NCBI GenBank assembly: GCA_964423795.1
Contig: CAYRGC010000004.1
Span: 1,032-65,031 of the forward strand
DNA: 64,000 bases
Source: an uncultured Candidatus Peribacteria bacterium
GTDB lineage: Bacteria > Patescibacteriota > Gracilibacteria > Peribacterales > Peribacteraceae
Direction of reading: 5' to 3'
How positions within the stretch are numbered: the first letter of the stretch is position 1; every line of letters starts with the position of its first letter. The translations under genes were made by a program, and so were the position numbers. Of the stretch, positions 3,892 through 49,674 are shown piece after piece. The notes below the pieces were generated by a model that made no database searches, was not told the origin of the DNA, and saw nothing but the letters and a program-made list of their open reading frames with translations.

Positions 3892-5319
3892 ATGGTCAAG
3901 AATCTGGAAGTCATCATCGGCCTCGAAGTCCACGCCCAAGTGAACTCGAAGACCAAGATGTTCTGCGGGTGTTCCACGGACGCGTTCGGCAAGGAGCCGA
4001 ACACCACCGTGTGCGAGATCTGCATGGGCCACCCGGGCACGCTCCCGGTGCCCAACGCCGTCGTGCTCGAGAAGGCGATTTCCACCTCCCTCGCGCTCGG
4101 CTGCACCGTGAACCCCGACTGCCACTTCGACCGCAAGCATTACTTCTACCCGGATCTCCCGTACGGGTTCCAGATTTCCCAGTACGACTATCCGCTCGCC
4201 TCGAAGGGCGCGGTGACGTACCTCGTGGGGAAGGAAGAGAAGCGCTGCGGCATCACGCGCCTGCACCTGGAGAACGACGCGGGAAAGCTCTCTCACCGCG
4301 GCGACGTGACGCTCTGCGACTACAACCGCGCGGGCTCGCCGCTCATGGAGATCGTGACGGAACCGGATCTGCGTTCGGCCGACGAGGCCAGCGCGTTCGC
4401 CCAGGAACTGCGCCGCATCCTGCTCGCCGTCGACGCCTCGGAGGCCGACATGTTCAAGGGGATGATGCGCTTCGACGCCTCGATCTCGCTCCGCGAGAAA
4501 GGCACGACCACGCTCAACCCCCGCAGCGAGATCAAGAACCTCAACTCCTTCCGCGCCCTCGAGCGCGCGCTCGCCTATGAGGAGGAACGCCTTCGCAAGC
4601 TCTGGGAGGAGACGGGCAAGCCGCTCCCCGGGAACATCACGGTGGGATGGATGGACGACGAGGGCCGCACGCGGCTGCTCCGTGACAAGGAATCCGCCGA
4701 CGACTACCGGTATTTCCCCGAACCGGACATCCCGCCGCTCGTGACGAGCGCCGACACGATCGCCAGGGCGAAAGCCGCGCTCCCCCGCCTTCCCGCCGCC
4801 CAGCGCGCGCACTACGCGGGCCTCGGGCTCTCGGAAGCGGAAGTCACCCTCCTGCTCGACGAATCCCGTCTGCAGAAGCTCTTCGACGCCGTGGAGGCGA
4901 AGACGGGCGACGGCAAGCGCGCCTCGAGCCTCGTGCTCTCGCAACTGCTCGGGTTCCTCAACGCCGCCGAAAAGACGATCGAAGACGCCCCGGGTGTGGA
5001 GGACGTGCTCGCGCTCGTGGACGCCGTCGACAAGGGCGCGATCTCCGGCAACGCCGCGAAGACCGTGCTCGAGAAGATGGTCGAGACCGGCAAGAAGCCC
5101 GGCGACATCATCAAGGAGGAGGGCATGGCCCAGATCTCGGATACCGGCGCCATCGAGGCAGCGGTCAAGGAAGCCGTGGAGAAGAACCCCAAGGCCATCG
5201 AGGACTACAAGAACGGCAAGCAGCAGGCCATCGGGGCCATCGTGGGCTACGTGATGAAGCAGACCAAGGGGCAGGCGAACCCCGCAATCGTGCAACAGGT
5301 GCTGAAGAAGTACCTCTGA
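3892..5319 (+). CDS. gatB: Asp-tRNA(Asn)/Glu-tRNA(Gln) amidotransferase subunit B
   Basis: 475 aa. It has the N-terminal IGLEVHAQVNSKTKMFCGCS motif and a C-terminal GatB/YqeY-like tail (GQANPAIVQQVLKKYL). Confidence 0.95.
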   Translation: MVKNLEVIIGLEVHAQVNSKTKMFCGCSTDAFGKEPNTTVCEICMGHPGTLPVPNAVVLEKAISTSLALGCTVNPDCHFDRKHYFYPDLPYGFQISQYDYPLASKGAVTYLVGKEEKRCGITRLHLENDAGKLSHRGDVTLCDYNRAGSPLMEIVTEPDLRSADEASAFAQELRRILLAVDASEADMFKGMMRFDASISLREKGTTTLNPRSEIKNLNSFRALERALAYEEERLRKLWEETGKPLPGNITVGWMDDEGRTRLLRDKESADDYRYFPEPDIPPLVTSADTIARAKAALPRLPAAQRAHYAGLGLSEAEVTLLLDESRLQKLFDAVEAKTGDGKRASSLVLSQLLGFLNAAEKTIEDAPGVEDVLALVDAVDKGAISGNAAKTVLEKMVETGKKPGDIIKEEGMAQISDTGAIEAAVKEAVEKNPKAIEDYKNGKQQAIGAIVGYVMKQTKGQANPAIVQQVLKKYL

Positions 5320-10287: not shown

Positions 10288-12093
10288 TCACTCCCACTCG
10301 ATCGTCCCCGGCGGTTTGTTCGTGAGATCAAGGAACACGAGGTCGATGCCCGGGATGCTCCGGATCTCCTCCGTCATGCGCGCGAGGGTCTGTTGCGGCA
10401 AGACGAAGGCATTGGCCGTCATGGCGTCCGTGGAACTGATGGGCCGCAGCACGACCGACTGGCCCCCCTTCCCCGTGCCGAACGGCACGAGCACGACGGG
10501 GAACTGCCAGATCGCGTCGCCGAGGCCGTCCTCGCGCATGACGCGCTGCGCCCTGTCGTCGGCTTCGCGCAAAAGGTCGGCGCGCCCGCGCGTGAGGTAT
10601 CCGGGACTGAAGACGAGTGACGGGACGTCGGAACGCGACGTGCAGAGCAGCACCCGGCTGATCTCGCGGTCGCGGTTCGGGATCTCGGTCGCGAGCTTGA
10701 GGTGCTCCGGCGTGACCGTCGACGGATCCTTCGCGAAGAGCGCCACGGCGTGACGGTACGTGCGGCCGTCGCCCTGCACGCCCACGGACTTCACCGGGAG
10801 GATGAGGGAATTGCTGATTGCTGATTGCTGATTCGAAGAATCGAACGGTTTCTCCGCGCAGAGGATACGGACGCCCAATCCCGGACCCGGGAAAGGATGG
10901 CGCCACACGAGCTCGCGCGGGAGACCCAGCTCCTCGCCGAGCGTGCGGACCTCGTCCTTGTAGAGCTCCTTGAGCGGCTCGATCACGAGCCCCTTCTCGA
11001 TGAGCTTCTGGATCATATCGACGCGGTTATGGTGCGTCTTGATATGGTCGGCGTGCTTGGTGCCGCCCGTCTCGATCGTGTCGGGGTAGATCGTGCCCTG
11101 GCCGAGCAGCCAGCCGTCTTCGATCCGGAGATTCATCTCCTCGCTCACGCGCTTCTGCACGGCGAGGAACGTGTCGCCGATCACCTTGCGTTTGGCTTCG
11201 GGCTCGTACACGCCGTCCAGATTGCCGAAGAACTCGTTGGACGCGTCCTCGATCCGGAGATTCTTGATGCCGAGCCGGTCGAACGCGTCGCGAAGAAGCG
11301 ACACCTCGTTCTTCCGCATCAACCCCGTGTCGACCAGGAGACCTTGCACGCGCTCGGGGCCGAGCACCTCGTTGAGCAGCGTGAAGGCGACGGTGGAATC
11401 GACGCCGCCGGAGACGAGCATGAAGACCTTCCGGTCCCCCACCTCCTTCTTCACCTGGCCGCCGATGTGTTCGGCGAAGCTGTCGATGCTCCAGGGAGCG
11501 TGGTCGCAGAGCTTCACGAAGTTCTCGAGGATCGTCATGCCGCCCTCCGTGTGCGTGACCTCGATATGGAACTGGATGCCGAAGATCTTCTTCTCGGGAT
11601 TCGCCATCGCGGCGACGAGCCCGTTCTCCGACGTGAGCGTTTGGATGAATCCCTGCGGTAGCGTCGTGACGGCGTCCCCGTGCGACATCCACGTGGTAAA
11701 CGAGGGAGGCAACGAGGAGAGAACATCCACCGGCACCTTTCGAACCTCTTTCCCCTCTTGAACCTTTCGAACCTCCGTCGGTCCGTACTCCTTCACCGTC
11801 CCGGGCTTCACCTCGCCGCCGAGCGCGTGCGCGAGCCACTGGTGCCCGTAACACAGGCCCAGCACCGGCACGCCGAGATCGAAAATCCCCGGATCGGCCT
11901 GCGGGCTGCCTTTCTCGTACACGCTCTGGGGGCCTCCCGAGAGGATGATGCCCGCGGCGCCCTTGAGCTCCTTCGCCGGCGTCTCCGGGACGCGGATCTC
12001 GGAATAGGCGCCGAGGCGGCGGACGCGGTTCCCGATGAGGTGCGCGTACTGTCCGCCGAAATCGAGGATGACGATGCTTCCGGGGTGGAGCAT
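10288..12093 (-). CDS. guaA: GMP synthase (glutamine-hydrolysing)
   Basis: 601 aa from ATG 12093. It has the GATase motif LGLCYGHQ, the PP-loop SGGVDST and the C-terminal KPPGTIEWE. Two repeat-encoded segments are listed separately. Confidence 0.95.
   Translation of the reverse strand: MLHPGSIVILDFGGQYAHLIGNRVRRLGAYSEIRVPETPAKELKGAAGIILSGGPQSVYEKGSPQADPGIFDLGVPVLGLCYGHQWLAHALGGEVKPGTVKEYGPTEVRKVQEGKEVRKVPVDVLSSLPPSFTTWMSHGDAVTTLPQGFIQTLTSENGLVAAMANPEKKIFGIQFHIEVTHTEGGMTILENFVKLCDHAPWSIDSFAEHIGGQVKKEVGDRKVFMLVSGGVDSTVAFTLLNEVLGPERVQGLLVDTGLMRKNEVSLLRDAFDRLGIKNLRIEDASNEFFGNLDGVYEPEAKRKVIGDTFLAVQKRVSEEMNLRIEDGWLLGQGTIYPDTIETGGTKHADHIKTHHNRVDMIQKLIEKGLVIEPLKELYKDEVRTLGEELGLPRELVWRHPFPGPGLGVRILCAEKPFDSSNQQSAISNSLILPVKSVGVQGDGRTYRHAVALFAKDPSTVTPEHLKLATEIPNRDREISRVLLCTSRSDVPSLVFSPGYLTRGRADLLREADDRAQRVMREDGLGDAIWQFPVVLVPFGTGKGGQSVVLRPISSTDAMTANAFVLPQQTLARMTEEIRSIPGIDLVFLDLTNKPPGTIEWE
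10811..10838. repeat. TTGCTGA heptamer x3 (+ TTCGAAG) inside guaA
   Basis: ttgctga ttgctga ttgctga ttcgaag on the + strand. It encodes SSNQQSAISNS just upstream of the conserved LPVKSVGVQGD motif. Confidence 0.85.
11736..11775. repeat. 9-nt periodic repeat inside guaA (EVRKV ... EVRKV)
   Basis: cctttcgaacctc occurs at 11736-11748 and 11763-11775, a period of 27 nt. The mRNA sense reads TTCGAAAGG TTCAAGAGG GGAAAGAGG TTCGAAAGG and encodes EVRKVQEGKEVRKV. Confidence 0.85.
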
Positions 12094-13048: not shown

Positions 13049-14524
13049 TTACGGCACCGCCGCCGCAAGCAGCCACAGGCTCATGGCCACGGACGCGTCC
13101 TCCCAGCTGTGGAGGAAGAGCCCCGCGATACTCACGCCGAGAAAGGCAAAGAAGACGGCCGGCGCGATCGATCCCGCGACTCGCAACCCGTCACTCGCAA
13201 CGTTTTGCAGCTTCCAAACCATCAACCCCGTCACCGCGATCCAGAGCAGCATCCCCACGATCCCCGCCTCGACGCCGATCTGCAGGTACCAGTTCTCCGG
13301 GAGAAAAGGGCATCGACACGGAACGGGCTTGTCCTGAACCGAGTCGAGGGGCTGCACTTGTGTGCCGCCCACGAAGACGCAGAGCTCCGGACGGTCCTTC
13401 GCCCAGGCGGCGTCGCTGCCCGCGGGAAGCTCCACGCACGCGTCGTTCACGCGGTTGCTTGCCGGACCCGCGGCGCCCAGGCCGGAACCGATGGGGTTTT
13501 TCGCGATGTGCGCGACGGCCGCGAGCGGCTTCTCGATGTGCCCGCGATTGCTCACGCTTCGCAGGACCGCCTGCGGGAAGAGCGTGAACAAGATCGCGGC
13601 GAAGATCGCGAGGAACACGGCGACGATCCAGGCAACCGTCCTACGCAGACTCTTTGGGACGTAGATCCAGAGCGCGAGTGCGCCAATCACAGTCGCAGCG
13701 ACCCACGCCGATCGTGAAAAACTGAGGACGATTCCGAGCGTAAGTACGGAGAGTGCGTACTTCTCGACCTTGCGGTCTTGGGCGCTCGTGAGTTTCCGCA
13801 AGAACGTCGTCAGGACGATCGACCACGGCAAGAGGAGCCAGAGACCAAATTGGTTGGGGCCACTGAGCGTTCCCTGCATCCGACGCAACGCCGAACCGCC
13901 GAGCTGCTGGAAGGCGGCGAGCGGCGCCTCGGGCACGTAGAGCGAGTGGAGATCGGAGTAGCCGAGCGCGCGATAGACTGCGTCGGGCAAAACGTAGATC
14001 CCCAGGCCCAGAATCGTCACGATTGCCCCGGCAACGACAAGAACTTTCGCTGCGGTCTGCCGGAACTCACCCGACCACGGGACGCGGCGCAGGACGAGGA
14101 ACGCGAGCGGCGCGAGGAGGTCGTAGCGGAAGCCGTACAGCGTCGCGGAGAGCGGGAGCGATGCGGTGAGCGAGATCGCGAGCGCAACGATCGCGAAGAG
14201 GCCGATCGCGACGTCGAGGAGATCGAATGGGGATTTGAGGTTTGGGGTTTGGGGTTTGTTCCGGAAAATCTCGACAAAGGCGAGCGCGACGATGACGACG
14301 AGCAGCCCCTCCTTCCACAGCGCGAGCGCACCGAGCGGCGCATGGTCCGGTCCCAGGATCACCTTCGTCGCGACCGTGATCAAAAGCGCATGGAACGGAA
14401 GGAGCGCGAGGAGGACGAGGGCCAGGGATTCCCGGAGTTTCTGGAGCACCGCGGAAGTGTACGACAGAAGGGCAGCATGGCAGAAGGGCATGCCTTCTGC
14501 TTTCTTGCCCTGCGCCTTCTGCAT
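13049..14524 (-). CDS. O-antigen ligase-like (Wzy_C family) integral membrane protein
   Basis: Many TM segments and a Wzy_C-like loop (LSFSRSAWVAATVIGALALW). The start could be the internal Met near 14491. Confidence 0.7.
   Translation of the reverse strand: MQKAQGKKAEGMPFCHAALLSYTSAVLQKLRESLALVLLALLPFHALLITVATKVILGPDHAPLGALALWKEGLLVVIVALAFVEIFRNKPQTPNLKSPFDLLDVAIGLFAIVALAISLTASLPLSATLYGFRYDLLAPLAFLVLRRVPWSGEFRQTAAKVLVVAGAIVTILGLGIYVLPDAVYRALGYSDLHSLYVPEAPLAAFQQLGGSALRRMQGTLSGPNQFGLWLLLPWSIVLTTFLRKLTSAQDRKVEKYALSVLTLGIVLSFSRSAWVAATVIGALALWIYVPKSLRRTVAWIVAVFLAIFAAILFTLFPQAVLRSVSNRGHIEKPLAAVAHIAKNPIGSGLGAAGPASNRVNDACVELPAGSDAAWAKDRPELCVFVGGTQVQPLDSVQDKPVPCRCPFLPENWYLQIGVEAGIVGMLLWIAVTGLMVWKLQNVASDGLRVAGSIAPAVFFAFLGVSIAGLFLHSWEDASVAMSLWLLAAAVP
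14232..14259. repeat. GGTTTGG heptamer array inside the O-antigen-ligase-like gene
   Basis: GATTTGA GGTTTGG GGTTTGG GGTTTGT. It encodes NKPQTPNLKSP in a predicted loop. Confidence 0.85.
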
Positions 14525-22127: not shown

Positions 22128-23915
22128 TCAGAGGTCGCGGAAGTGGGACACGAGTTCGTCGACGAAGAACGGCCGGCCGTCGTACTTGAGGATCTTCTCC
22201 TCGATCCGAAGTCCGCCTTCCTGCGCGATGAGCGTGCCGAGCTGTCCCGTGAAGTTGCCCTCGACGAGGACGACCTTCTTCGCGGTCCGCGCGAGCGCGA
22301 GGAGGCGCTCGGTCTTGAGGGGCCAGAGGTAGGAGAAGTGGAGATATCCGTTACGAGTTACGGGTTTCGGGTTACGGGAACATTCACGAAGAGCGTCGAG
22401 AACCGGGCCTTTTGTTGATCCCCACCCGATGAGAAGCACATCAAGCTCCGGATTTTTTCCCGTAACTCGTAACTCGGAACCCGTAACCGTCCAAAGTTCC
22501 GGCTCCGGCAGCGCCTTCTTCAAGGCGACCTGCTTGCTCATCCGTTTCTCCATCTGCGCCTTCGCGTTGTCGGCGTGCTCGTTCACGGAGCCGTCGCCGC
22601 CGTGTTCGTCGCCCTGGGCGTTCCAGGTGGCGGGCGCCTCGGTGCCGGGCAGCCAGCGCGGGGAGATGCCGTCCTTGGCGGCGGGATCGAAGCGGTCGGA
22701 GGCCTTGAGCTTCTGGATCTTCTTCGGATCGGTGACGAGAAGACCGCGCTTGAGCTCCGTCTTGGACTGGTCGAACTGGGGCTCGGTGTAGAGCGCCTCG
22801 GCAATCTGCTTGTCCGTGAGGACGATCACGGAGATCTGGTACTCCTCCGCCAGGTTGAATGCCACGGGCATCAACCGGAAGGCGTCCTCGGCGTTGCTCA
22901 CGCCGATCACGCACCGCGCGAACTCGCCGTGGGCGCCGTGGACCGCGAGGAGAAGATCGCCCTGCGCCGTCCACGTGGGAAGGCCCGTGGCGGGCCCCGG
23001 GCGCTGCGCGAGGACGAAGACCGTCGGGTTCTCGATGATCGCGTTGAGGGAGAGCGTCTCGGTCATGAGGTCGAAGCCGCCGCCGGAGGTGCCGGTAAGG
23101 GCGCGCGTACCCATGTGCATGGCGCCGCTCACCATCTGCGCCGCGGTGATCTCGTCCTCCGCCTGCTTCACGACCATCCCGGTCTTGTTCTGCAGGTCGG
23201 CGATGAAGGAGAGCAGCGGCGAGGACGGCGTCATCGGGTATCCGGCGTAGAAACGCACGCCCGCGTGGATCGCGCCGAGGCCCATGGCCTCGCTGCCCGT
23301 GAGGAGCATCGAGTCCTTCCACGTCTTCACCGGCTTCGGAAGCTCGACCGTGACCTTGCCGAGCGCGGGATCCTCGTACGCGTAGCCCTTCTCCACGCAC
23401 TGTAGGTTGGCCTCGAGGAGATCCTTCTTCTTCGCGAAGCGCTCGCCGACGAGGCTCTTTAGGGCCTCCTTCTCCTGGCCGAGGACCGACCACAGGAACC
23501 CCGTGAGGAGCACGTTTCCCAGGATGGACTTGGCACCCATCTCCTTGAGGATCTTCTCCACCGGCATCTTGATCACGCGGAGCTTCTTCTTCGCGAGGAG
23601 CGCCTGGTCGTCCGCCGAGAACTTCCAGTCCTCGACGAAGTGCACGATCACGCCGCCATCCTTAAGGTCATGCAGGTTGAGCTCGAGACCGTGGTGGTTG
23701 TACGTGAGCAGCACATCGACCTGGGTCTCGCTGCTCTCGATGCGCTCGTCGGAGACGTCGAGCTGATAGCTCGTGTGTCCGCCCTTGATGAGGGACGGAT
23801 ACTCGCGATAGCCAAACACGCAGTAGCCCGCGCGCTTCAGCCCCTTGGCCACGATCTCGCCGATCGAGTTGATGCCTTGCCCGGCTGCGCCGACGACTTT
23901 AAGGGAGATACGCAT
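22128..23915 (-). CDS. 2-oxoacid:ferredoxin oxidoreductase, alpha subunit (gamma-type domain fused at N-terminus)
   Basis: 595 aa. The N-terminus is AGQGINSIGEIVAKGL, followed by the pyrimidine-binding domain (YAGYPMTPSS) and LLIGWGSTKGPV. It lies 2 nt upstream of the beta subunit. Confidence 0.9.
   Translation of the reverse strand: MRISLKVVGAAGQGINSIGEIVAKGLKRAGYCVFGYREYPSLIKGGHTSYQLDVSDERIESSETQVDVLLTYNHHGLELNLHDLKDGGVIVHFVEDWKFSADDQALLAKKKLRVIKMPVEKILKEMGAKSILGNVLLTGFLWSVLGQEKEALKSLVGERFAKKKDLLEANLQCVEKGYAYEDPALGKVTVELPKPVKTWKDSMLLTGSEAMGLGAIHAGVRFYAGYPMTPSSPLLSFIADLQNKTGMVVKQAEDEITAAQMVSGAMHMGTRALTGTSGGGFDLMTETLSLNAIIENPTVFVLAQRPGPATGLPTWTAQGDLLLAVHGAHGEFARCVIGVSNAEDAFRLMPVAFNLAEEYQISVIVLTDKQIAEALYTEPQFDQSKTELKRGLLVTDPKKIQKLKASDRFDPAAKDGISPRWLPGTEAPATWNAQGDEHGGDGSVNEHADNAKAQMEKRMSKQVALKKALPEPELWTVTGSELRVTGKNPELDVLLIGWGSTKGPVLDALRECSRNPKPVTRNGYLHFSYLWPLKTERLLALARTAKKVVLVEGNFTGQLGTLIAQEGGLRIEEKILKYDGRPFFVDELVSHFRDL
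22350..22378. repeat. GTTACGG-family heptamer arm A inside korA-like gene
   Basis: gttacgagttacgggtttcgggttacggg, which encodes ...NPKPVTRNG. Confidence 0.85.
22459..22489. repeat. GTTACGG-family heptamer arm B (complement of arm A) inside korA-like gene
   Basis: cccgtaactcgtaactcggaacccgtaaccg, which encodes TVTGSELRVTG. It lies 80 nt from arm A. Confidence 0.85.
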
Positions 23916-23922
23916 GTTTGAA

Positions 23923-23957
23923 CTTAGTGCTTCGTGCTTAGTGCTTGGAGCTTCCGA
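23923..23957. repeat. CTTNGTG heptamer array
   Basis: CTTAGTG CTTCGTG CTTAGTG CTTGGAG CTTCCGA. It encodes the flavodoxin C-terminal tail ...LQALSTKH-stop and abuts the korA start. Confidence 0.85.
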
Positions 23958-29016: not shown

Positions 29017-29211
29017 TTAGAGGTTCGGGAGGAGACCGCGCAGGGCCTTCATGTTGGTCGGGTGCGCGACGTGCGTGCGTTGCAAGCGCTTCTGGCGCTT
29101 GTTCTTCTGCTGCAGGAGGTGGCGGCGGCCGCGGCGGTTGAACGCGAACTTGCCGGAGCCGGTCTTGCGGACCCGCTTCTTGGCGCCGGAATGGGACTTC
29201 ATCTTAGGCAT
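29017..29211 (-). CDS. rpmI: 50S ribosomal protein L35
   Basis: 64 aa, MPKMKSHSGAKKRVRKTGSGKF... Confidence 0.95.
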   Translation of the reverse strand: MPKMKSHSGAKKRVRKTGSGKFAFNRRGRRHLLQQKNKRQKRLQRTHVAHPTNMKALRGLLPNL

Positions 29212-29265
29212 AACGGGCGGGGAGTATAGCGGGTGATTTTGCGGATGCAAAGGGACTTTTCTGAA

Positions 29266-29326
29266 GGTTTCGGGTTGCGGGTGTCGGGTTGCGAGAACCC
29301 CGCAACTCGCAACCCGTAACTCGCAA
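29266..29326. repeat. foldback of heptamers, GGTTGCG/GTTACGG family
   Basis: Arm 1 is GGTTTCG GGTTGCG GGTGTCG GGTTGCG, the loop is agaacc, and arm 2 is CCGCAAC TCGCAAC CCGTAAC TCGCAAC. It lies between the infC stop and rpmI. Confidence 0.85.
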
Positions 29327-29869
29327 CTACGACTTTTTTGGCCTCAGGATCGCAATAAACTGATCCCCCTGGCGCTTGATGTCCTGCTCCAGCTCCGAGA
29401 CGTCGGCGAGCGAGAGGAGGAGGTTTTTCATCTTCTCGATGGCATAGTCTTTGTTCGCGAGCTCGCGGCCGCGGAGGCGGACCATGAACTTCACGAGGTG
29501 GCGCTCCGTGAAGAACTCGCGGGCGCGGTCGGCCAGGCGGTCGATGTCGTGCTTGTCCGTGCGGAAGCCGAACTTGAGGATCTTCACTTCCACCTGCTTG
29601 CTCCCCGCCTTCTGCTTCCGCTCCTTCTTCTGGATCTGATAGAGGTACTTTCCCACGTCGTCGATCTTCACGACGGGCGGCTGCGCCTTCGGCGACACCT
29701 CGATGAGGTCGAATCCCTGGGACTGCGCGAGCGCGATGGCTTCCGCGGTCGGCATCACGCGCGTGCCCTGCTCCGTGACGAGCATCACTTCCGGCACGCG
29801 GATCTGGTCGTTCGTGCGGGGACGCTTCTCGTCGACGCGGTTGGGGCGGTAATGGTGTCGCTGACGCAG
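29327..29869 (-). CDS. infC: translation initiation factor IF-3 (5' end uncertain, non-canonical start likely)
   Basis: The first canonical start (GTG 29797) would cut off the conserved N-terminal motif. The frame is open back to TAG 29894-29896 and reads ..LRQRHHYRPNRVDEKRPRTNDQIRVPEVMLVTEQG. No ATG, GTG or TTG lies in that stretch, and CTG 29869 is one candidate start. Confidence 0.8.
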   Translation of the reverse strand: MRQRHHYRPNRVDEKRPRTNDQIRVPEVMLVTEQGTRVMPTAEAIALAQSQGFDLIEVSPKAQPPVVKIDDVGKYLYQIQKKERKQKAGSKQVEVKILKFGFRTDKHDIDRLADRAREFFTERHLVKFMVRLRGRELANKDYAIEKMKNLLLSLADVSELEQDIKRQGDQFIAILRPKKS

Positions 29870-29920
29870 GGGAAAGAGGGGGAAAAGACCCCGCTACTGT
29901 AGCCGAGAAAGGCCTTTCGA

Positions 29921-29983
29921 GGAAGGACCAATCCCAAAACCCAAGGACCAATTGGTCCTTGTCGCATGGTCTTTGGTGCTTCG
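29921..29983. repeat. foldback of heptamers, CCAAAAC/TTTGG family
   Basis: AAGGACC AATCCCA AAACCCA AGGACCA | ATTGGTC CTTGTCG CATGGTC TTTGGTG, centred on ccaattgg. Confidence 0.8.
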
Positions 29984-33731: not shown

Positions 33732-33841
33732 GGCAGGCCGGAGGCCTGCCCCAACAGTGGGGAGTGTTTGCCCTGATCAAAACTTGTACAGCAATAGTCC
33801 AGGTAGCTCTTCTGAAACTTGGGGCAGGCCTCCGGCCTGCC
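33730..33841. repeat. REP-spacer-REP composite, second copy
   Basis: ccggcaggccggaggcctgcccc lies at 33730-33752 and ggggcaggcctccggcctgcc lies at 33821-33841. The start of the spacer (gagtgtttgccctgatcaaaa) resembles the spacer at 21110-21135. Confidence 0.85.
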
Positions 33842-34824
33842 TAGAGAGGTAATTCTCCCGTCCTCTTCTCCGGTTCGACGTAGGGCACCTTGAGCATCTC
33901 GTAGATATCCTCCTCCTCGCGGCTGGCGATGACCTTCTCCCCGAGGAAGAGCCCGTACTCGCTCAGCTTCCAGCCGCGCGCGATGGCCTTCTTGCGGAGC
34001 GCGATGTTGTGCTCCTTGTCGCCCGTGAAGTAGAGCAGCGCGCTCCCCCACTGGTCGCGTGAGACGAAGCGGACATCGACGCGCATGACTTCGACCGGTC
34101 GGATGCCGTGGTCTTGGATCTTCAAATCGAACGAGAGCTTCTTCTCCCCGTGCGCCACGACGTCGCGGACGAAGGGAAGCGCAGCGATCGCGTCGCTGAC
34201 CTTCTTCGGGTCCTTCGTGACGACGAGGACGTCCAGGTCCCCGACCGTCGCCTTCTTCCGCCGGTACGAGCCCGCGATCGACGCGCGATCGACGCCGGGG
34301 ACCGCGCGGATGGTGTTCACCAGAATCTCCGTCTCCTTCTCCACCTGCTCGCGGTTGAACCGCCGCGAGCGCTCGCTCACGCGCTTGGCGCTCTCGAGGA
34401 TTTTCTTCTCCATCAGTTCCGAGAGCCGGGGCAGCGTCCGCAGCTTCCCCTCCTTCGCGGCCTTCACGAGATCGGCGATGGTCTTGATGCCGAGTTCCGT
34501 CTGCAGCTGGCGCACGCGCTTGGGGCCGAGGTTCTCGATCTCGAGGAGCTTCGGCGCGATGCCCCCCTGCGCGCCCGCGAGTTCCTCGAACGCCTTCACG
34601 CGGCCGGATTCCACGAATTCCTTCGCTTTCCCCGCGACGGCCTTGCCGATGCCGGGCAGCGCCAAAAGCTCCTTCTCCGCGTACGCGGACAGATCCTTCG
34701 GGAGTTCATCCACCACCTGCGCCGCGCGTCTGTACGCCGCGGGCTTGAAGGCGACGCCCTGCTCGTCCAAGAGCGCCGCCATCTGGCGGAGGATGTGGGC
34801 GAAGGAGGCGTTACGTCCGGTCAT
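33841..34824 (-). CDS. DNA polymerase family X (Pol beta-like), polymerase core only
   Basis: 327 aa from ATG 34824. It has HhH motifs (LLALPGIGKAVAGK; IENLGPKRVRQL) and a nucleotidyltransferase motif (GSYRRKKATVGDLDVLV). No PHP domain is present. Confidence 0.85.
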   Translation of the reverse strand: MTGRNASFAHILRQMAALLDEQGVAFKPAAYRRAAQVVDELPKDLSAYAEKELLALPGIGKAVAGKAKEFVESGRVKAFEELAGAQGGIAPKLLEIENLGPKRVRQLQTELGIKTIADLVKAAKEGKLRTLPRLSELMEKKILESAKRVSERSRRFNREQVEKETEILVNTIRAVPGVDRASIAGSYRRKKATVGDLDVLVVTKDPKKVSDAIAALPFVRDVVAHGEKKLSFDLKIQDHGIRPVEVMRVDVRFVSRDQWGSALLYFTGDKEHNIALRKKAIARGWKLSEYGLFLGEKVIASREEEDIYEMLKVPYVEPEKRTGELPL

Positions 34825-34888
34825 TCGGGGATGGTAGCACCTCCGACTTCGAGGAAGCCGTAGAAAAGATCTGTTTTCTAGAGTAATC

Positions 34889-34915
34889 CAGGCCGCGCAC
34901 GGGGCGCGGCCTGGA
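34889..34915. terminator. 11-bp perfect-stem hairpin bounding the low-GC islet
   Basis: ccaggccgcgc-acggg-gcgcggcctgg, 14 nt beyond the stop of ORF 34929-35135. Confidence 0.45.
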
Positions 34916-34928
34916 GTTACGTCAGGGC

Positions 34929-35135
34929 TTAGACTTTGCAAAGTCGGCGACGAGGCGGATTCTTTTGAGAGATGAGGAATTCGACAATTTCGTTCTGTGT
35001 CTTCGGTTCGACAGTCGACAACCTGGCTGCAAGAGCCTGATTGTCAAGAATCGCAGGACCGAGATTCTGAACGAAACCCCATTTCTTGAGAAGATGCCGC
35101 GCAGACGATGACTGTTGCACAGTAAGATGAAGCAT
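34929..35135 (-). CDS. small hypothetical protein (68 aa), low-GC islet
   Basis: The ATG is preceded by AGGAG with a 5-nt spacer. No homolog recognised. Confidence 0.35.
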   Translation of the reverse strand: MLHLTVQQSSSARHLLKKWGFVQNLGPAILDNQALAARLSTVEPKTQNEIVEFLISQKNPPRRRLCKV

Positions 35136-38311: not shown

Positions 38312-38399
38312 GTTTGTAGTTGGTAGTTTGTAGAAGTGGCAGTATCTGGAATTTTTAGGAGAACTTGTACTAAAAACTATCAACTAAACACTAAAAACT
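38312..38399. repeat. heptamer arrays GTTTGTA / ACTAAAA in divergent spacer
   Basis: gtttgta gttggta gtttgta g lies at 38312-38333 and tactaaa aactatc aactaaa cactaaa aactc lies at 38366-38399. Confidence 0.7.
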
Positions 38400-38437
38400 C
38401 CCCTGACAGAACAGCGAACTCCCCGTAAACTCCGAAC

Positions 38438-39820
38438 GTGAAAATCGCCATTGTTGGTACCGGCTACGTCGGCCTCGTCTCAGCGGCCTGCTTCGCGGAG
38501 CTGGGGCATACCGTCATCGGCGTGGACATCGACCCGAAGAAGATCGAGAAGCTCAAGAGGGGCGAAAGCACCATCTTCGAGCCGGGTCTCGAGGAGCTCA
38601 TCAAGAAGGGGCTCAAGACGAAGCTGCTGAGCTTCACGACCGACCTCGTCGAGGCGCTTCCCCAGGTGAGCGTGGTGTTCTCTGCGGTGGCGACCCCGCC
38701 GGGCGAGGGATTCAAGGCCGATCTCCGTGCGGTGTTCACCGTCGCGGAAACCGTGGCGAAGCACGCGGAGAAGCCGGTGGTCTTCGTGAATAAGTCCACG
38801 GTGCCCGTCGGCACGGGAAAGCAGTGCGAGGAGCGGATGGCCAAGATCCTCGCGGACCGGAAGAAGGACTTCTCGATCCCCGTCGTGAGCAACCCCGAGT
38901 TCCTGCGCGAGGGCCTCGCGGTGAATGACACTCTGATGCCGGATCGGATCGTCGTCGGGATAAATGAGACAGAAAGTCATCGGTCATCAGTCATGAGTCA
39001 TGGGGATGAAGATGCTCAAGACTCAAGACTCACGACTCACGACCCGCTCGATTCGAGAAAACTCATGCAAGACCTTTACGCTCCCATCACTCGCGTCGGG
39101 AAACCCCTCGTCTTCATGAGCCGCGAGAGCGCGGAGATCGTGAAGTACGCCAGCAACGCCTTCCTCGCGACGAAGATCAGCTTCATCAACATGCTCACGG
39201 AGTTCGCGGAGATCACGGGAGCCAACATCCGCGACGTCGCCCGCGGCATGGGCCTCGATAACCGCATCGGTCCGCGCTTTCTCCACGCCGGCATCGGCTA
39301 CGGCGGCAGCTGCTTCCCGAAGGACGTGAAGGCGCTCCTCGCGACCGCGAAGGATCACGGACTCAGCTTCGACATCGTGGAGGCCACCGATCGCATCAAC
39401 GCGCGCCAGCGCCAGCGTTTCTTCGAGAAGATCCTGAAGGCGCTCCCGAAAAAGGCCAAGGTCGCCGTGTGGGGGCTCTCCTTCAAGCCGAAAACCGACG
39501 ACATGCGCGAGGCGCCGAGCTTGGATCTGCTCCCGATGCTCGTCGACGCCGGGCACGCCGTGACGGCCTTCGACCCCGAGGCGATGACGGTGGCGCGGCC
39601 GCTCGTGCCCAAAGAGGTGGCGTTCGCCGAGTCCCCGATGGAGGCCGCCAAGGGCGCCGAAGCGCTCGTGCTCCTCACCGAGTGGGACGTCTTCCGCGGA
39701 GCGGACCTGGCAGAGCTCAAGGCGGCGATGAAGGGGGTCGACCTCTTCGACGGACGCAACGTGTATGAGCCGAAGGACGTGGAGAAGGCGGGGTTGAGGT
39801 ATCGGGGGATCGGGATCTAG
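38438..39820 (+). CDS. ugd: UDP-glucose 6-dehydrogenase (with about 26-aa repeat-encoded insertion)
   Basis: 460 aa with MKIAIVGTGYVGLV, GGSCFPKDV and other family motifs. The insertion is described under repeat 38976-39043. Confidence 0.9.
   Translation: MKIAIVGTGYVGLVSAACFAELGHTVIGVDIDPKKIEKLKRGESTIFEPGLEELIKKGLKTKLLSFTTDLVEALPQVSVVFSAVATPPGEGFKADLRAVFTVAETVAKHAEKPVVFVNKSTVPVGTGKQCEERMAKILADRKKDFSIPVVSNPEFLREGLAVNDTLMPDRIVVGINETESHRSSVMSHGDEDAQDSRLTTHDPLDSRKLMQDLYAPITRVGKPLVFMSRESAEIVKYASNAFLATKISFINMLTEFAEITGANIRDVARGMGLDNRIGPRFLHAGIGYGGSCFPKDVKALLATAKDHGLSFDIVEATDRINARQRQRFFEKILKALPKKAKVAVWGLSFKPKTDDMREAPSLDLLPMLVDAGHAVTAFDPEAMTVARPLVPKEVAFAESPMEAAKGAEALVLLTEWDVFRGADLAELKAAMKGVDLFDGRNVYEPKDVEKAGLRYRGIGI
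38976..39043. repeat. AGTC-family heptamer foldback inserted in-frame in ugd
   Basis: Arm 1 is GTCATCG GTCATCA GTCATGA GTCATGG, the loop is ggatgaagatg, and arm 2 is CTCAAGA CTCAAGA CTCACGA CTCACGAC. It encodes ..SHRSSVMSHGDEDAQDSRLTTHD.. Confidence 0.9.
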
Positions 39821-39850
39821 TCGTGAGTCACAAGTCCTGAGTCTTGAGTA
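39819..39850. repeat. left terminal inverted repeat (AGTCNNN heptamers) of the four-helix-bundle cassette
   Basis: AGTCGTG AGTCACA AGTCCTG AGTCTTG AGTA, starting inside the ugd stop codon. Confidence 0.85.
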
Positions 39851-39879
39851 TTTTGCCCGAGGGAGTAGGCTGAAAAGCT

Positions 39880-40248
39880 ATGCTTCATATGTCTTTTGAG
39901 AAGCTAAAGGTCTGGCAGAGAGCGATGCAACTTGTGACCTTCATCTACGAAATTACGGCGAAATTTCCTCGCGAAGAGATATATGGTCTCACGTCCCAGA
40001 TGCGAAGAGCAGCTGTGTCTGTTCCCTCGAATATTGCCGAGGGAAGTCAACGAACGTCAAATCGTGATTTTGCGAATTTCATCCTGATAGCCAAAGGATC
40101 ATTGGCAGAGCTTCAGACTCAAATCACTATTGCGAAGCAACAGTCATTTTTCGATGCGAAGGAATATGGAAAAATACGGGATGAAATGGAGGAAATAAGT
40201 AAGATGCTCTACGCTTTCCATCATCAATTACTCACTCACAAGTCTTGA
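39880..40248 (+). CDS. four-helix-bundle protein, 23S rRNA intervening-sequence protein family
   Basis: 122 aa with hallmarks FEKLKVWQRAMQL, EIYGLTSQMRRAAVSVPSNIAEG and F..IAKGSLAELQTQ. GC is visibly low. Confidence 0.85.
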   Translation: MLHMSFEKLKVWQRAMQLVTFIYEITAKFPREEIYGLTSQMRRAAVSVPSNIAEGSQRTSNRDFANFILIAKGSLAELQTQITIAKQQSFFDAKEYGKIRDEMEEISKMLYAFHHQLLTHKS

Positions 40249-40277
40249 CTGAAGACTCGTGACTTACGACTCACGAC
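40231..40277. repeat. right terminal inverted repeat of the four-helix-bundle cassette
   Basis: The reverse complement reads AGTCGTG AGTCGTA AGTCACG AGTCTTC AGTCAAG ACTTGTG. It ends 1 nt before the epimerase ATG. Confidence 0.85.
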
Positions 40278-40278
40278 T

Positions 40279-41226
40279 ATGAAGGTCTTCCTCACCGGCT
40301 GCGCCGGATTCATCGGGTTCCACACCGCGAACCGCCTGCTCGATCGCGGCGACGAAGTGGTGGGTCTCGACAACATGAGCCCCTACTACGACCCCAAGCT
40401 GAAGGAGGCGCGTCTCGCGATGCTCCAGAAGCGCAAGGGCTTCACCTTCACCAAGGGCGACATCCTCGACCGCAAGACGATCCGCGAGTGCATGCGCGGC
40501 TGCGACCGCGTGTGCCACCTCGCGGCGCTCGCCGGCGTGCGGTATTCGTTTGAGCATCCGGAGGAGTACATCGCGATCAACATCGACGGCTTCTTCGAGA
40601 TGATCGACGAGGCGAGGCTTCAGAAGATCCCCGGCTTCATCTACGCCTCCTCGAGTTCCGTCTACGGCGGCAACACGAAGTTCCCGCAGCACGAGGACGA
40701 CCGCACGGACGATCAAGTGTCGCTCTACGGACAGAACAAGAAGGACAACGAGCTCATGGCGCACATCTACCATAAGCTCTACGGAATCCCCGTCACGGGC
40801 CTGCGCTTCTTCACGGTCTACGGCCCGTGGGGCCGCCCGGACATGGCGCTCTTCCTCTTCACGGACGCGATCCTCAAGGACAAGCCCATCAAGGTCTTCG
40901 GCCACGGCAAGATGCAGCGCGACTTCACGTACGTGGACGACATCGTGTCCGGCGTGGTCGCGTCCATCGACAAGAACTACCCGGAGGAGATCTTCAACCT
41001 CGGCGCCGGCCACACGGAAGAGCTCCTGGATTACATCGGCATGATCGAGAAGACCGTCGGCAAGGAGGCCACGAAGGAATTGCTCCCCATGCAGCCCGGA
41101 GACACGGTCCGCAGCGAGCCGGACATCTCGAAGGCGAAGAAGATGCTCGGCTACGCCCCGAAAACGACGATCAAAGAAGGCGTCCCCAAGTTCGTGGAGT
41201 GGTATAGGGAATACCACGGTCTCTGA
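40279..41226 (+). CDS. NAD-dependent epimerase, UDP-glucuronate 4-epimerase-like
   Basis: 315 aa with VFLTGCAGFIGFH and YGQNKKDNE (YxxxK). The N-terminal pattern is typical of CapI/LpsL-type enzymes, and ugd is the neighbour. Confidence 0.8.
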   Translation: MKVFLTGCAGFIGFHTANRLLDRGDEVVGLDNMSPYYDPKLKEARLAMLQKRKGFTFTKGDILDRKTIRECMRGCDRVCHLAALAGVRYSFEHPEEYIAINIDGFFEMIDEARLQKIPGFIYASSSSVYGGNTKFPQHEDDRTDDQVSLYGQNKKDNELMAHIYHKLYGIPVTGLRFFTVYGPWGRPDMALFLFTDAILKDKPIKVFGHGKMQRDFTYVDDIVSGVVASIDKNYPEEIFNLGAGHTEELLDYIGMIEKTVGKEATKELLPMQPGDTVRSEPDISKAKKMLGYAPKTTIKEGVPKFVEWYREYHGL

Positions 41227-47803: not shown

Positions 47804-47927
47804 CGATTTCTTCTTCTCCTCGTGATACTCCCCCTTCGAGATTCACCCGGCTTCGCTCGGCGGAGCTTCGCCAAGGTGAGACTCAGGACGATTTTTTCTC
47901 CTCGTGATATTCGCCTTCCAGATTCAC
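47804..47927. repeat. duplication of the FAD-oxidoreductase 3' end around a GC-rich mini-element
   Basis: cgatttcttcttctcctcgtgatactcccccttcgagattcac lies at 47804-47846. cgattttttctcctcgtgatattcgccttccagattcac lies at 47889-47927. Confidence 0.85.
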
Positions 47928-49598
47928 GTCCCAGAGGTTCGCCTTGTCCGTGCGGCCGGCGACGATGTTGTCCACCGCGAGCATGGAGGTGAGCATGCTG
48001 TGATCCTGGTTGTTGTAGCGGTGCATGCCGTTGCGTCCCACGAGGAACATGTTCGGGACCGCGTCCGCGTACTCGCGCACCACCGGCAACTGCGCGTAGC
48101 TGCCGAAGTAGGCGGGATACGCCTTGGGCATGCGCAGCACGCAGGCGTCGACGAGATCGCGGCGGTCGATGAACCCGATCGCCTCCATCTCCTTGGTGCC
48201 GAGCTCGATGAGCTTCTCGTCGGGCATCACCCAGAGGTCGCCTCCTTCGTTCACGAAGTACTCGAGCCCGATCCACACCGAGTTCGCGCGGTCCGCGACC
48301 ATGTACGGGCTCCAGTTGTTGAAGATCTGGATGCGTCCGACGCGCACGCCGCCGTCCTGGACGTAGATCCAGTTGTCGGGAACGGCGGTCGCCGGCGCCA
48401 CGCCCTTCTCCTGGACGTGGAGCTTCTTGAGCAGGAGACCCACCGTGAGGAAATCGCGGTACTGCAGGCCCTCGGCCACCTCGATGACCCGCTCGGGCGG
48501 ACGCGGGTGGATCATGCCGACGAGGTGCTTCACCGGCATGGTGGAGAAGAAGTAGTCGCACGCGACTTCCTCGGACTTCCCCGTCTTCATATCTTCGACC
48601 GTGACGGCGACGACCTTGCCGCCCTCGAGCCGCACGCCGCTCACGCGACGTTCCCACGTGATCTCTCCCCCGCACGCGCGGACGCGCTCCGCGACGGTCT
48701 CCCACATCTGGCCGGGGCCGAACTTGGGGTAGAAGAAGCGGGTGATGAGGCTGGTCTCGCGCTCCTCCTGCGCCTTCTTGAAGTCGCTGCTGAGGAGGTC
48801 TTTCACCGCGTGGATCACGGCGCGCTTGAGCGAGAGGCCCTTGATGCGCTGGGCGCCCCAGTCGGCGCGCACCTCGCTGCATGCCACGCCCCACACCTTC
48901 TCCGTGTAATCCTTGAAGAACGTGCGATACAGACGGTCGCCGAAGCGGTTGATGAAGAACTGATCCAGGAATTCCTCCTGCTTGATGGGGAAAAGCTGGG
49001 CCTTGATGTAGCTGCAACCGATGAGGAAGGTATTGAGGAGGCCGAGCTTGCGCGCCACCGTGAGGGTGATGCCGATCGGGTACGGAAAGAAGTGCCGGCG
49101 GTAATAGATGCGGCTCAGGCGGGGCCGCTGCAGCATGACGCCGTCTTCCTTCTCGGGGTCGGGGGCTTTCCGTTTCACCCTGACAACGGACGAGGCCTGA
49201 GTCTTGAGCTCTGAATCACGAGAAGCTTCCTTCCCATCACCCACGACTTGCGACTCACGACTTCCCTGAGAGACGCAATCGCGGCACAGGAACTCCACGA
49301 TGACCTCGGCGGCGTAGTCGATCTCGTGTTGCTTCTCGGCGGTGTCCGCCGCGGGGCTCCCCTGCAACGGAAGGACCGAGAACCACCAATCCATCACGCG
49401 AGTACTCTTGCTGAAGAAACGGTGTCCGCCGATGTCGATGCGGTTCCCCTTGTAGTTGAAGGTCTGCGCGATGCCGCCCGTGGCGGTGGTCGCTTCGAAG
49501 ACGACGGGCCTGATGTCCGTGCGTTTGAGGAGCTCGTAGGCCGCGGTGAGGCCCGCAGGACCCGCACCGGCGATGACGGCGATCTTCGGAGAGCTCAT
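47883..49598 (-). CDS. FAD/NAD(P)-binding oxidoreductase (amine-oxidase / UDP-galactopyranose-mutase-like superfamily)
   Basis: 571 aa from ATG 49598, with the dinucleotide fold [19 protein letters not shown]. It lies downstream of gmd on the same strand. Confidence 0.75.
49196..49264. repeat. AGTC-family heptamer foldback inserted in-frame in the FAD oxidoreductase gene
   Basis: Arm 1 is CCTGAGT CTTGAGC TCTGAAT CACGAG, the loop is aagcttccttcccatcacc, and arm 2 is CACGACT TGCGACT CACGACT TCC. It encodes ..[26 protein letters not shown].. Confidence 0.85.
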
Positions 49599-49674
49599 GT
49601 CTGGCGCAGGGTACCCGAGCGCCGGGAAAAGCAAAAACGAAGGCCGGCGCGCCGCATCATCGCTTCGCGCGACG

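Follow-up and report, generated by a model that had tools for sequence, protein, structure and literature searches.

What is a gene for a four-helix-bundle protein, enclosed by inverted arrays of heptamers and far poorer in G+C than its surroundings, doing between two genes for sugar-nucleotide enzymes? The question is raised by a 64,000-nucleotide stretch of DNA from an uncultured Candidatus Peribacteria bacterium (contig CAYRGC010000004.1, positions 1,032 to 65,031 of the forward strand; the whole stretch is called the window, and positions are counted from its first letter), in which a 462-nt segment occupies the whole spacer between ugd, encoding UDP-glucose 6-dehydrogenase, and a gene of the NAD-dependent sugar epimerase/dehydratase (short-chain dehydrogenase/reductase, SDR) family. 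We favour, with reasonable rather than high confidence, the reading of this segment as one copy of a selfish cassette of the intervening sequence (IVS) type that rides on operon transcription and whose protein, of a pentameric RNA-binding type, has the heptamer arrays as its probable target. The cassette is an ordinary member of its kind, and the inverted heptamer-array architecture is the rule for the protein family across phyla.

For the anatomy of the cassette, the arms were located by an inverted-repeat search. The upstream host gene ugd (38438-39820, +) ends in a TAG stop codon at 39818-39820, the four-helix-bundle gene of 122 amino acids lies at 39880-40248 (+), and the downstream epimerase gene (40279-41226, +) begins with an ATG at 40279, a placement on which an earlier note on this DNA, made from its letters and open reading frames (ORFs), was right. 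The 5' arm (39818-39849, +) holds about 4.5 tandem heptamers (T AGTCGTG AGTCACA AGTCCTG AGTCTTG AGT) and opens with the ugd stop codon as its first three bases, while the 3' arm (40231-40279, +) is an inverted heptamer array (..CAAGTCTT GACTGAA GACTCGT GACTTAC GACTCAC GACTA), the last base of which is the A of the epimerase ATG. Read in the same direction, the left flank is AGTCGTG AGTCACA AGTCCTG AGTCTTG AGTA and the reverse complement of the right flank is AGTCGTG AGTCGTA AGTCACG AGTCTTC AGTC, with AGTC constant and the remaining three bases variable among the units of the window's arrays. The inverted arms (39818-39849 and 40248-40279) are 84% complementary over 32 nt, above the match of about three quarters that had been estimated from the same AGTCNNN reading. 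A leader (39850-39879, +), with a purine-rich GGGAG at 39861-39865, stands between the 5' array and the gene, and the last codons of the gene (..LLTHKS*) extend into the 3' array. The predicted minimum-free-energy RNA fold pairs the 5' arm with the 3' arm (z -4.56). G+C content is 0.43-0.47 in the cassette and 0.62-0.68 around it, with a host value of about 0.64, bearing out the AT-rich interior described before.

The pattern AGTCN3AGTCN3AGTC occurs 7 times in the window, where 0.01 occurrences are expected, and all of them fall in the cassette flanks and in two foldbacks, one in ugd and one in a FAD/amine-oxidase-like gene. These are the three places named in the earlier note, but AGTC is only one among several heptamer families in the window. 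Arm-to-arm similarity within the cassette was 0.83, compared with 0.75-0.88 between either arm and those of the AGTC foldbacks and 0.4-0.6 for other heptamer families, so that the resemblance of the two flanks, on which the earlier note had leaned, is far above that between families but is not specific to the pair.

The 122-aa protein was assigned by profile searches, scoring 141.1 bits against PF05635 (cut-off 33.8), 132.1 bits against TIGR02436 (cut-off 24) and 140.3 against NF008911 (cut-off 137), which confirms the predicted membership in PF05635/TIGR02436 (E 1.8e-41). It matches PDB entry 2GSC over residues 6-113 (E 2e-26), and the motif SVPSNIAEG (S-x-P-S-N-I-A-E-G) is invariant in an alignment of its relatives. 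The protein is a clear member of the family by its profile scores and, from its similarity to solved members, is predicted to be a four-helix bundle; both solved PDB structures related to it have five chains. Extending the Pfam search to remote relatives (E up to 1) gave nothing consistent besides PF05635 and bAvd, and the PADLOC defence-system models gave no match. A scan of the window with Rfam returned a single tRNA, with no rRNA and no other known RNA family.

For the census of relatives, 80 loci with homologous genes were fetched (Acidobacteriota, Bacteroidota, Clostridia, Gammaproteobacteria, Planctomycetota, Patescibacteria and others), and 78 loci were measured for period-7 self-similarity of the flanks (out of 21) and for inverted-repeat strength. 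Controls were 395 positions in these loci and, as a stricter set, the ends of 487 further genes that they contain. The first three homologous loci already had the anatomy of the window with other heptamers, namely AGTTNTG between rpsR and yebC (L001, L003) and AGCNATG between ugd and pfkB (L006). The median self-match was 15 of 21 on either flank and 9 at control positions (95th percentile 12), and values of at least 15 on both flanks were found in 31 of the 78 loci, compared with 0 of 395 control positions and 5 of 487 other genes. An inverted-repeat score of at least 12 was obtained for 56 of the 78 loci, compared with 2 of 395 and 11 of 487, respectively, and the genes of relatives are therefore systematically flanked by terminal inverted repeats (TIRs), as the earlier note had proposed to check. 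With a milder mismatch penalty, an inverted repeat was found in 70 of 82 loci, with a median arm of 32 nt and a median identity of 84%, the same as in the window. An array on one flank was present at 12% of the other genes in the census loci. In a separate set of viral contigs, inverted-repeat flanks were found in 27 of 34 cases; phages were considered as carriers and set aside as not obvious vectors, with only 38 loci among 2.9 million viral contigs.

The placement and composition of the cassettes are regular too. By crude ORF calls, the gene runs in the same direction as its downstream neighbour in 53 of 60 cases and as its upstream neighbour in 60 of 67, the 5' arm begins approximately where the upstream gene has its stop codon, and the median distance from the end of the 3' arm to the start codon downstream is about 10 nt. 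G+C content was lower in the ORF than in the flanks in 70 of 70 loci, with a mean gap of 8.4 points, the gap of 20 points in the window being an extreme. Polarity is also fixed, since AGTC arrays face inwards in 29 inverted pairs of the AGTC type and outwards in 2. Arrays have a median length of 4.4-4.5 units, and their consensus heptamers, read from outside inwards, contain AG in 79-85% and AGT in about half, with C making up only 10-12% of bases; this strand is G/T-rich and C-poor.

The heptamer itself differs from cassette to cassette (GGGACCG, GAGTGAG, TAGCTGT, AGTGGTT, CAGTGAT and others) and varies even inside one genome. Differences between units are clustered on few positions (dispersion z 7.1; 3.9 invariant positions, 3.1 expected), as could arise from a recognised core or from slippage of variant units. 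Protein identity and heptamer distance were correlated only slightly (Spearman -0.11, permutation p 0.001), a signal driven by close relatives with identical heptamers, and a code linking protein and heptamer was rejected. Departures from the usual anatomy were also recorded. Period 8 replaces period 7 in some loci (L010, L073, L083, L075, L042 and L048). In L025 (3769-4336), the four-helix-bundle match spans 541 nt instead of about 340 nt and has a heptamer array inside it (3917-3944), and this cassette may have been interrupted by a nested array. In L076 (4850-5410), the 3' flank is a direct repeat of the 5' flank (AGCTAAC AGCTATT AGCTCTC AGCCTTC ...) that comes right behind an inverted array located in the final codons, which suggests cassettes in head-to-tail arrangement.

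Within one heptamer family, gene-less foldbacks and solo arrays far outnumber the gene-bearing copies. A metagenome scan for AGTCGTGAGTCNNNAGTC, covering 80 loci, recovered 27 foldbacks and 34 solo arrays (and 22 more at contig ends), and a four-helix-bundle ORF was present in only 2 of the 80 AGTC-array loci, in both cases adjoining arrays. In the window, AGTC-type foldbacks without an ORF lie in frame in ugd (38975-39046, +), where the L006 and L091 orthologues have none, and in the FAD/amine-oxidase-like gene (47883-49634, -) at 49197-49264 (-), as established by orthologue comparison. The former adds 17 residues relative to a 72%-identical orthologue and the latter 15 residues relative to the 72%-identical L006 orthologue, so that both in-frame foldbacks pointed out in the earlier note are real. 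A link between full and gene-less copies was found in the metagenomic locus L106 (6355-7100, -). Here a full AGTC-type cassette has a shorter copy behind it in tandem, in which both arms, the leader and roughly nine initial codons remain, and which is a clear internal-deletion derivative of the full cassette. The proposal that foldbacks are derivatives of the gene-bearing form holds in principle by this example, but it does not extend to the window's own foldbacks, the loops of which do not convincingly resemble the interior of the cassette. In L106, each copy is preceded by CCGTGAAGAG and followed by ATGAACCG, which could reflect tandem duplication or be an insertion signature.

Other arrays in the window were counted under stringent settings by period, giving 9 at period 7, 1 at period 8 and 0 at periods 5, 6 and 9-11, with 0 in random sequence. 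A foldback of a second family (22349-22489; arms CGTTACG AGTTACG GGTTTCG GGTTACG and complement, loop of about 80 nt) lies in frame in a pyruvate:ferredoxin oxidoreductase-like (POR) gene (22131-23915, -), after the POR_N domain. A compact foldback of the same (A/G)GTT(A/G)CG family at 29262-29328, within or at the end of an ORF without Pfam match (29199-29951, -), shares 75-88% of its bases with the arms at 22349-22489. Period-7 arrays of other sequence are found at 2480-2548, 23923-23954, 10805-10837, 14228-14261 and 38372-38400, the last being an NNNNACT array in the pfkB-ugd spacer; among these, one foldback ends at an ATG (2546) and one solo array stands directly 5' of the POR start codon. 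Two more of them lie in frame in genes, one in the GMP synthase gene and one in a Wzy-like gene.

Turnover of these elements was followed among syntenic relatives. L091, with a ugd 78% identical to that of the window, keeps the gene order AdoHcyase, pfkB, ugd, epimerase, and its ugd-epimerase spacer is 40 nt long and contains only a solo direct array of the AGCTNNN type (AGCTCAT CGCTAAA AGCTCTA AGCTTTT). In L006, a four-helix-bundle cassette occupies the neighbouring pfkB-ugd spacer. That spacer holds an array, foldback or cassette in four of four genomes (L006 9982-10399, L089 5860-5975, L091 5960-5998, window 38372-38400), and the repeat unit, a heptamer or octamer, is different in each; the array at L091 5960-5998 has period 8, with four copies of AGTATTCC upstream of ugd. 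Within ugd itself, many Peribacteria/Peregrinibacteria sequences (P0121-P0192, alignment columns ~224-256) carry insertions of differing length and sequence after VVGIN and others carry none, and this site is the codon position of the window's ugd foldback; in L089 (6530-6600), a foldback built from quite different heptamers, of the GCGGCGA / GGTTGCG type, makes up the ugd insertion. The VVGIN site is either an insertion hot spot or the place of an old foldback with fast sequence turnover. Spacers and loops that hold a cassette in one genome and an array or foldback in relatives fit cassette decay, or landing in pre-existing arrays. The comparison with an empty site, proposed earlier, was thus answered in part: occupancy differs between relatives, but neither an exact empty site nor a close relative with the same cassette was found among the sequences available, in which identity reaches at most 78% for ugd and 62% for the four-helix-bundle protein, and with no closer relative the insertion junctions are not definable to the base.

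The neighbours within about 5 kb of the cassette are AdoHcyase, PfkB, ugd, the epimerase, a GT2/GtrA protein, Pol X and proteins without Pfam match. The gene for the family X (Pol beta-like) DNA polymerase (33841-34938 in the window) is kept a few kb from ugd in the window, L006, L089 and L091, and its proximity is probably mere host synteny.

For the favoured reading, a selfish cassette of IVS type, the following mechanism is proposed. The cassette, within which no promoter- or terminator-like site was found in the window, would have no promoter of its own and would be expressed by read-through from ugd. Its arms would pair as a stem of about 30 bp, which RNase III could cut as it does in the rRNA-borne members, whose insertion would be made tolerable by this cut. 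The 3' arm, C/A-rich and G-poor, would serve as the leader of the downstream epimerase gene too; the epimerase gene is without a Shine-Dalgarno-like sequence in the window and in L091, and in the window its ATG directly follows the 3' arm. The protein, a homologue of the pentameric RNA-binding protein Avd, most likely binds the periodic heptamers, with about one heptamer per subunit, and such binding would control folding or processing, or promote the persistence and spread of the arrays. Such binding would resemble, as an analogy only, that of TRAP and HutP to regularly spaced NAG triplets. As the earlier note had suggested, the anatomy thus outlined is that of an IVS-like cassette in a messenger context, the stem and the heptamers upstream of the ORF being found here outside rRNA.

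Several results pull the other way and have to be set against this reading. Pfam searches found no recombinase, nuclease or recognisable catalytic domain in the protein, and no transposase-like signature came to light. Across 36 well-defined cassettes, the longest word shared outside the arms averaged 3.53 nt and that in shuffled pairings 3.45 nt, so that no target-site duplication was detected. The mismatches in the stems comprised 74 of the G:U type and 90 of the A:C type; with no G:U excess, there is no sign that pairing of the sense RNA is under selection, although tandem arrays can pair in several registers, which weakens this test. None of the window's foldback loops matched the cassette interior clearly above shuffles (best p 0.02-0.07, matches of 9-16 nt). 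The nearest four-helix-bundle protein is only 62% identical, so that no recent transfer is traceable. The wide variation of the heptamers and their weak tie to protein similarity argue against a strict protein-to-sequence code, the clustered differences between units could stem from slippage as well as from selection, and the statistics of orientation and distance were based on crude ORF calling.

A broader form of the favoured reading was also considered, more tentatively. PF05635 proteins may be the dedicated partners of tandem-heptamer arrays, with the gene and its inverted arrays as the autonomous unit of an element spread very widely and with the ORF-less foldbacks, STRR-type arrays and in-frame peptides of many phyla as its decay products. 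The pentameric barrel would then recognise some five units of the (N)AG-N4 type, spaced periodically along a single strand of nucleic acid. If this were so, a partnership of repeat and gene of the REPIN/RAYT kind would be run by a non-enzymatic nucleic-acid-binding protein, and the IVS protein family and the heptamer repeats would be explained together.

Among other explanations, a host regulatory system survives best, though we think it unlikely. The protein would be a regulator binding RNA or DNA at periodic motifs, in the manner of TRAP and HutP, the arrays ahead of many genes would be its operators, and autoregulation through both flanks would be all that makes the gene look like a cassette. 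Both TRAP and HutP form ring-shaped oligomers and recognise NAG triplets set at a constant distance, and the UAG-N4 site of HutP corresponds to period 7; the likeness is a mechanistic analogy only, with no homology to the window protein. Arrays outnumbering genes (only 2 of the 80 AGTC-array loci had one), the one-flank arrays at 12% of other genes, the position of published heptamer arrays just upstream of start codons, heptamers with a loosely kept NAG core and spacer bases that vary, and the agreement between 4-5 units per array and five chains in the related PDB entries would all be expected of operators and their regulator. A host regulator does not account for an ORF with G+C below that of the host in every one of the 70 loci, for patchy presence and position among syntenic relatives, for insertions inside rRNA and in frame in housekeeping genes, or for the deleted copy in tandem with a full one in L106, and the antisense 3' array is not needed by a model with single-stranded RNA operators.

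A classical DNA transposon of the miniature inverted-repeat transposable element (MITE) or TIR kind, in which a transposase encoded elsewhere recognises the arms and the four-helix-bundle gene is a passenger, is improbable. Inverted termini with fixed polarity, many short ORF-less copies and the internal-deletion derivative in L106 are features of such elements, and a MITE-like nature had been suggested in the earlier note. Against it, target-site duplications were found neither at the window cassette nor across the 36 well-defined cassettes. The sequence of the arms changes from one cassette to the next, even inside a single genome, and no single transposase could recognise all of them, the cargo always belongs to the same protein family, which is unexpected for a passenger, and the orientation relative to host genes is biased to about 90%.

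We give the same low standing to a pure RNA-processing device, in which the stem would be selected as an RNase III site uncoupling the ugd and epimerase messages and nothing would be mobile. The predicted stem and the cleavage of homologous IVS stems by RNase III agree with it, but the stems have no bias to wobble pairs, the syntenic relative L091 has a 40-nt spacer without a stem, the same architecture is found at unrelated loci in many phyla, and the low G+C content is not accounted for.

Coincidence, with heptamer arrays littering spacers and a small gene happening to lie between two of them, is very unlikely: at least 9 further period-7 arrays are present in the window, but both arms come from one of several heptamer families and are inverted, and other genes had arrays on both flanks in 5 of 487 and inverted ones in 11 of 487 cases, compared with 31 and 56 of 78 for the family. 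Least probable of all, to the point of being negligible, is a remnant or component of a diversity-generating retroelement with the gene as its avd, for which the weak similarity of the protein (bAvd 35.2 bits; phrog_3206, E 1.3e-9) is outweighed by scores below both curated cut-offs (PF22296, 35.2 against 40; NF033474, 35.2 against 80), the lack of a reverse transcriptase within about 5 kb on either side, and flanking genes for sugar-nucleotide enzymes.

Two puzzles of about thirty years' standing meet in this locus, the role of the IVS or "S23" four-helix-bundle proteins and the origin and meaning of tandem heptamer repeats. The protein family comprises about 25,000 clusters at 50% identity and has solved structures yet no assigned role, and the repeats span cyanobacteria, xanthomonads, Beggiatoaceae, Bacteroidota and bacteria of the candidate phyla radiation (CPR). 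A family-wide association with fixed polarity joins the orphan protein family to the orphan repeats and makes both directly testable. The name "23S rRNA intervening sequence protein" greatly understates how general the kind is, and also how regular, and the rRNA intervening sequences are recast as one landing context of a general cassette, which is also a possible source of in-frame peptide insertions in CPR housekeeping enzymes.

Comparison with known systems places the cassette as follows. REP (repetitive extragenic palindromic) elements flank a gene with dispersed short repeats, most copies of which are gene-less hairpins, and this arrangement was a clue to the function of the gene. The REPIN/RAYT system, made up of REP hairpin doublets and a transposase present in single copy, shares with the cassette the logic of a gene flanked by repeats that are also dispersed without it. 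The cassette gene, in contrast, encodes a helical bundle of about 120 aa without an HUH/Y1 transposase domain (Pfam matches to PF05635 and bAvd only), and its repeats are variable tandem heptamer arrays, whereas REP is a conserved palindrome. Correia elements of Neisseria are inverted-repeat insertions within operons that are processed by RNase III, and Rickettsia palindromic elements are in-frame insertions in conserved proteins; the window's foldbacks in ugd, the FAD oxidoreductase and POR behave like the latter. Unlike the cassettes, in which heptamer arms alone are shared and no duplications were found, the Correia and Rickettsia elements are conserved over their full length and have target-site duplications. 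Avd, a pentameric barrel that binds RNA and has been described as 'similar to S23 ribosomal proteins', is a homologue of the window protein, but the window locus has no reverse transcriptase and its protein scores below the Avd cut-offs.

The arrays themselves resemble the tandem heptamer repeats published as cyanobacterial STRR, Xanthomonas GGGAATC, Nostoc GGGGA(C/T)T and Beggiatoaceae TAACTGA, which have 2-14 units, are intergenic and often end right before a start codon, with 70-75 convergent inverted pairs in Xanthomonas; the arrays in the window are likewise head-to-tail, of 7 nt, with several units and beyond chance. In Xanthomonas campestris, GGGAATC array #15, which has 4 units, is separated from XCC0517 by 6 nt and extends over the start annotated for XCC0516 (PMC4692102, supplement). 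XCC0516 is the PF05635 family member crystallised as PDB 2GSC and is described in that paper merely as 'conserved'. The published papers on heptamer arrays make no connection to PF05635 genes despite array #15 at XCC0516, and no paper linking the two was found in a literature search that did not extend to subscription journals, so that an earlier description is possible.

The closest known system is the ORF-bearing IVS of 23S rRNA (Leptospira; Coxiella burnetii, 'S23p'), which has been viewed as a selfish and perhaps mobile element. In Coxiella, for which alone excision by RNase III has been shown, the ends of the IVS form a stem of 28 bp, tandem GACAGAT heptamers stand directly upstream of the ORF, the enzyme cuts at the first heptamer, and the number of heptamers varies between strains. 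PF05635, a stem of about 28-32 bp and heptamers upstream of the ORF are common to both, and the window copy differs from the IVS in its heptamer, AGTCNNN in place of GACAGAT, and in its position, which is the mRNA spacer of two protein-coding genes and not helix 25 or 45 of 23S rRNA.

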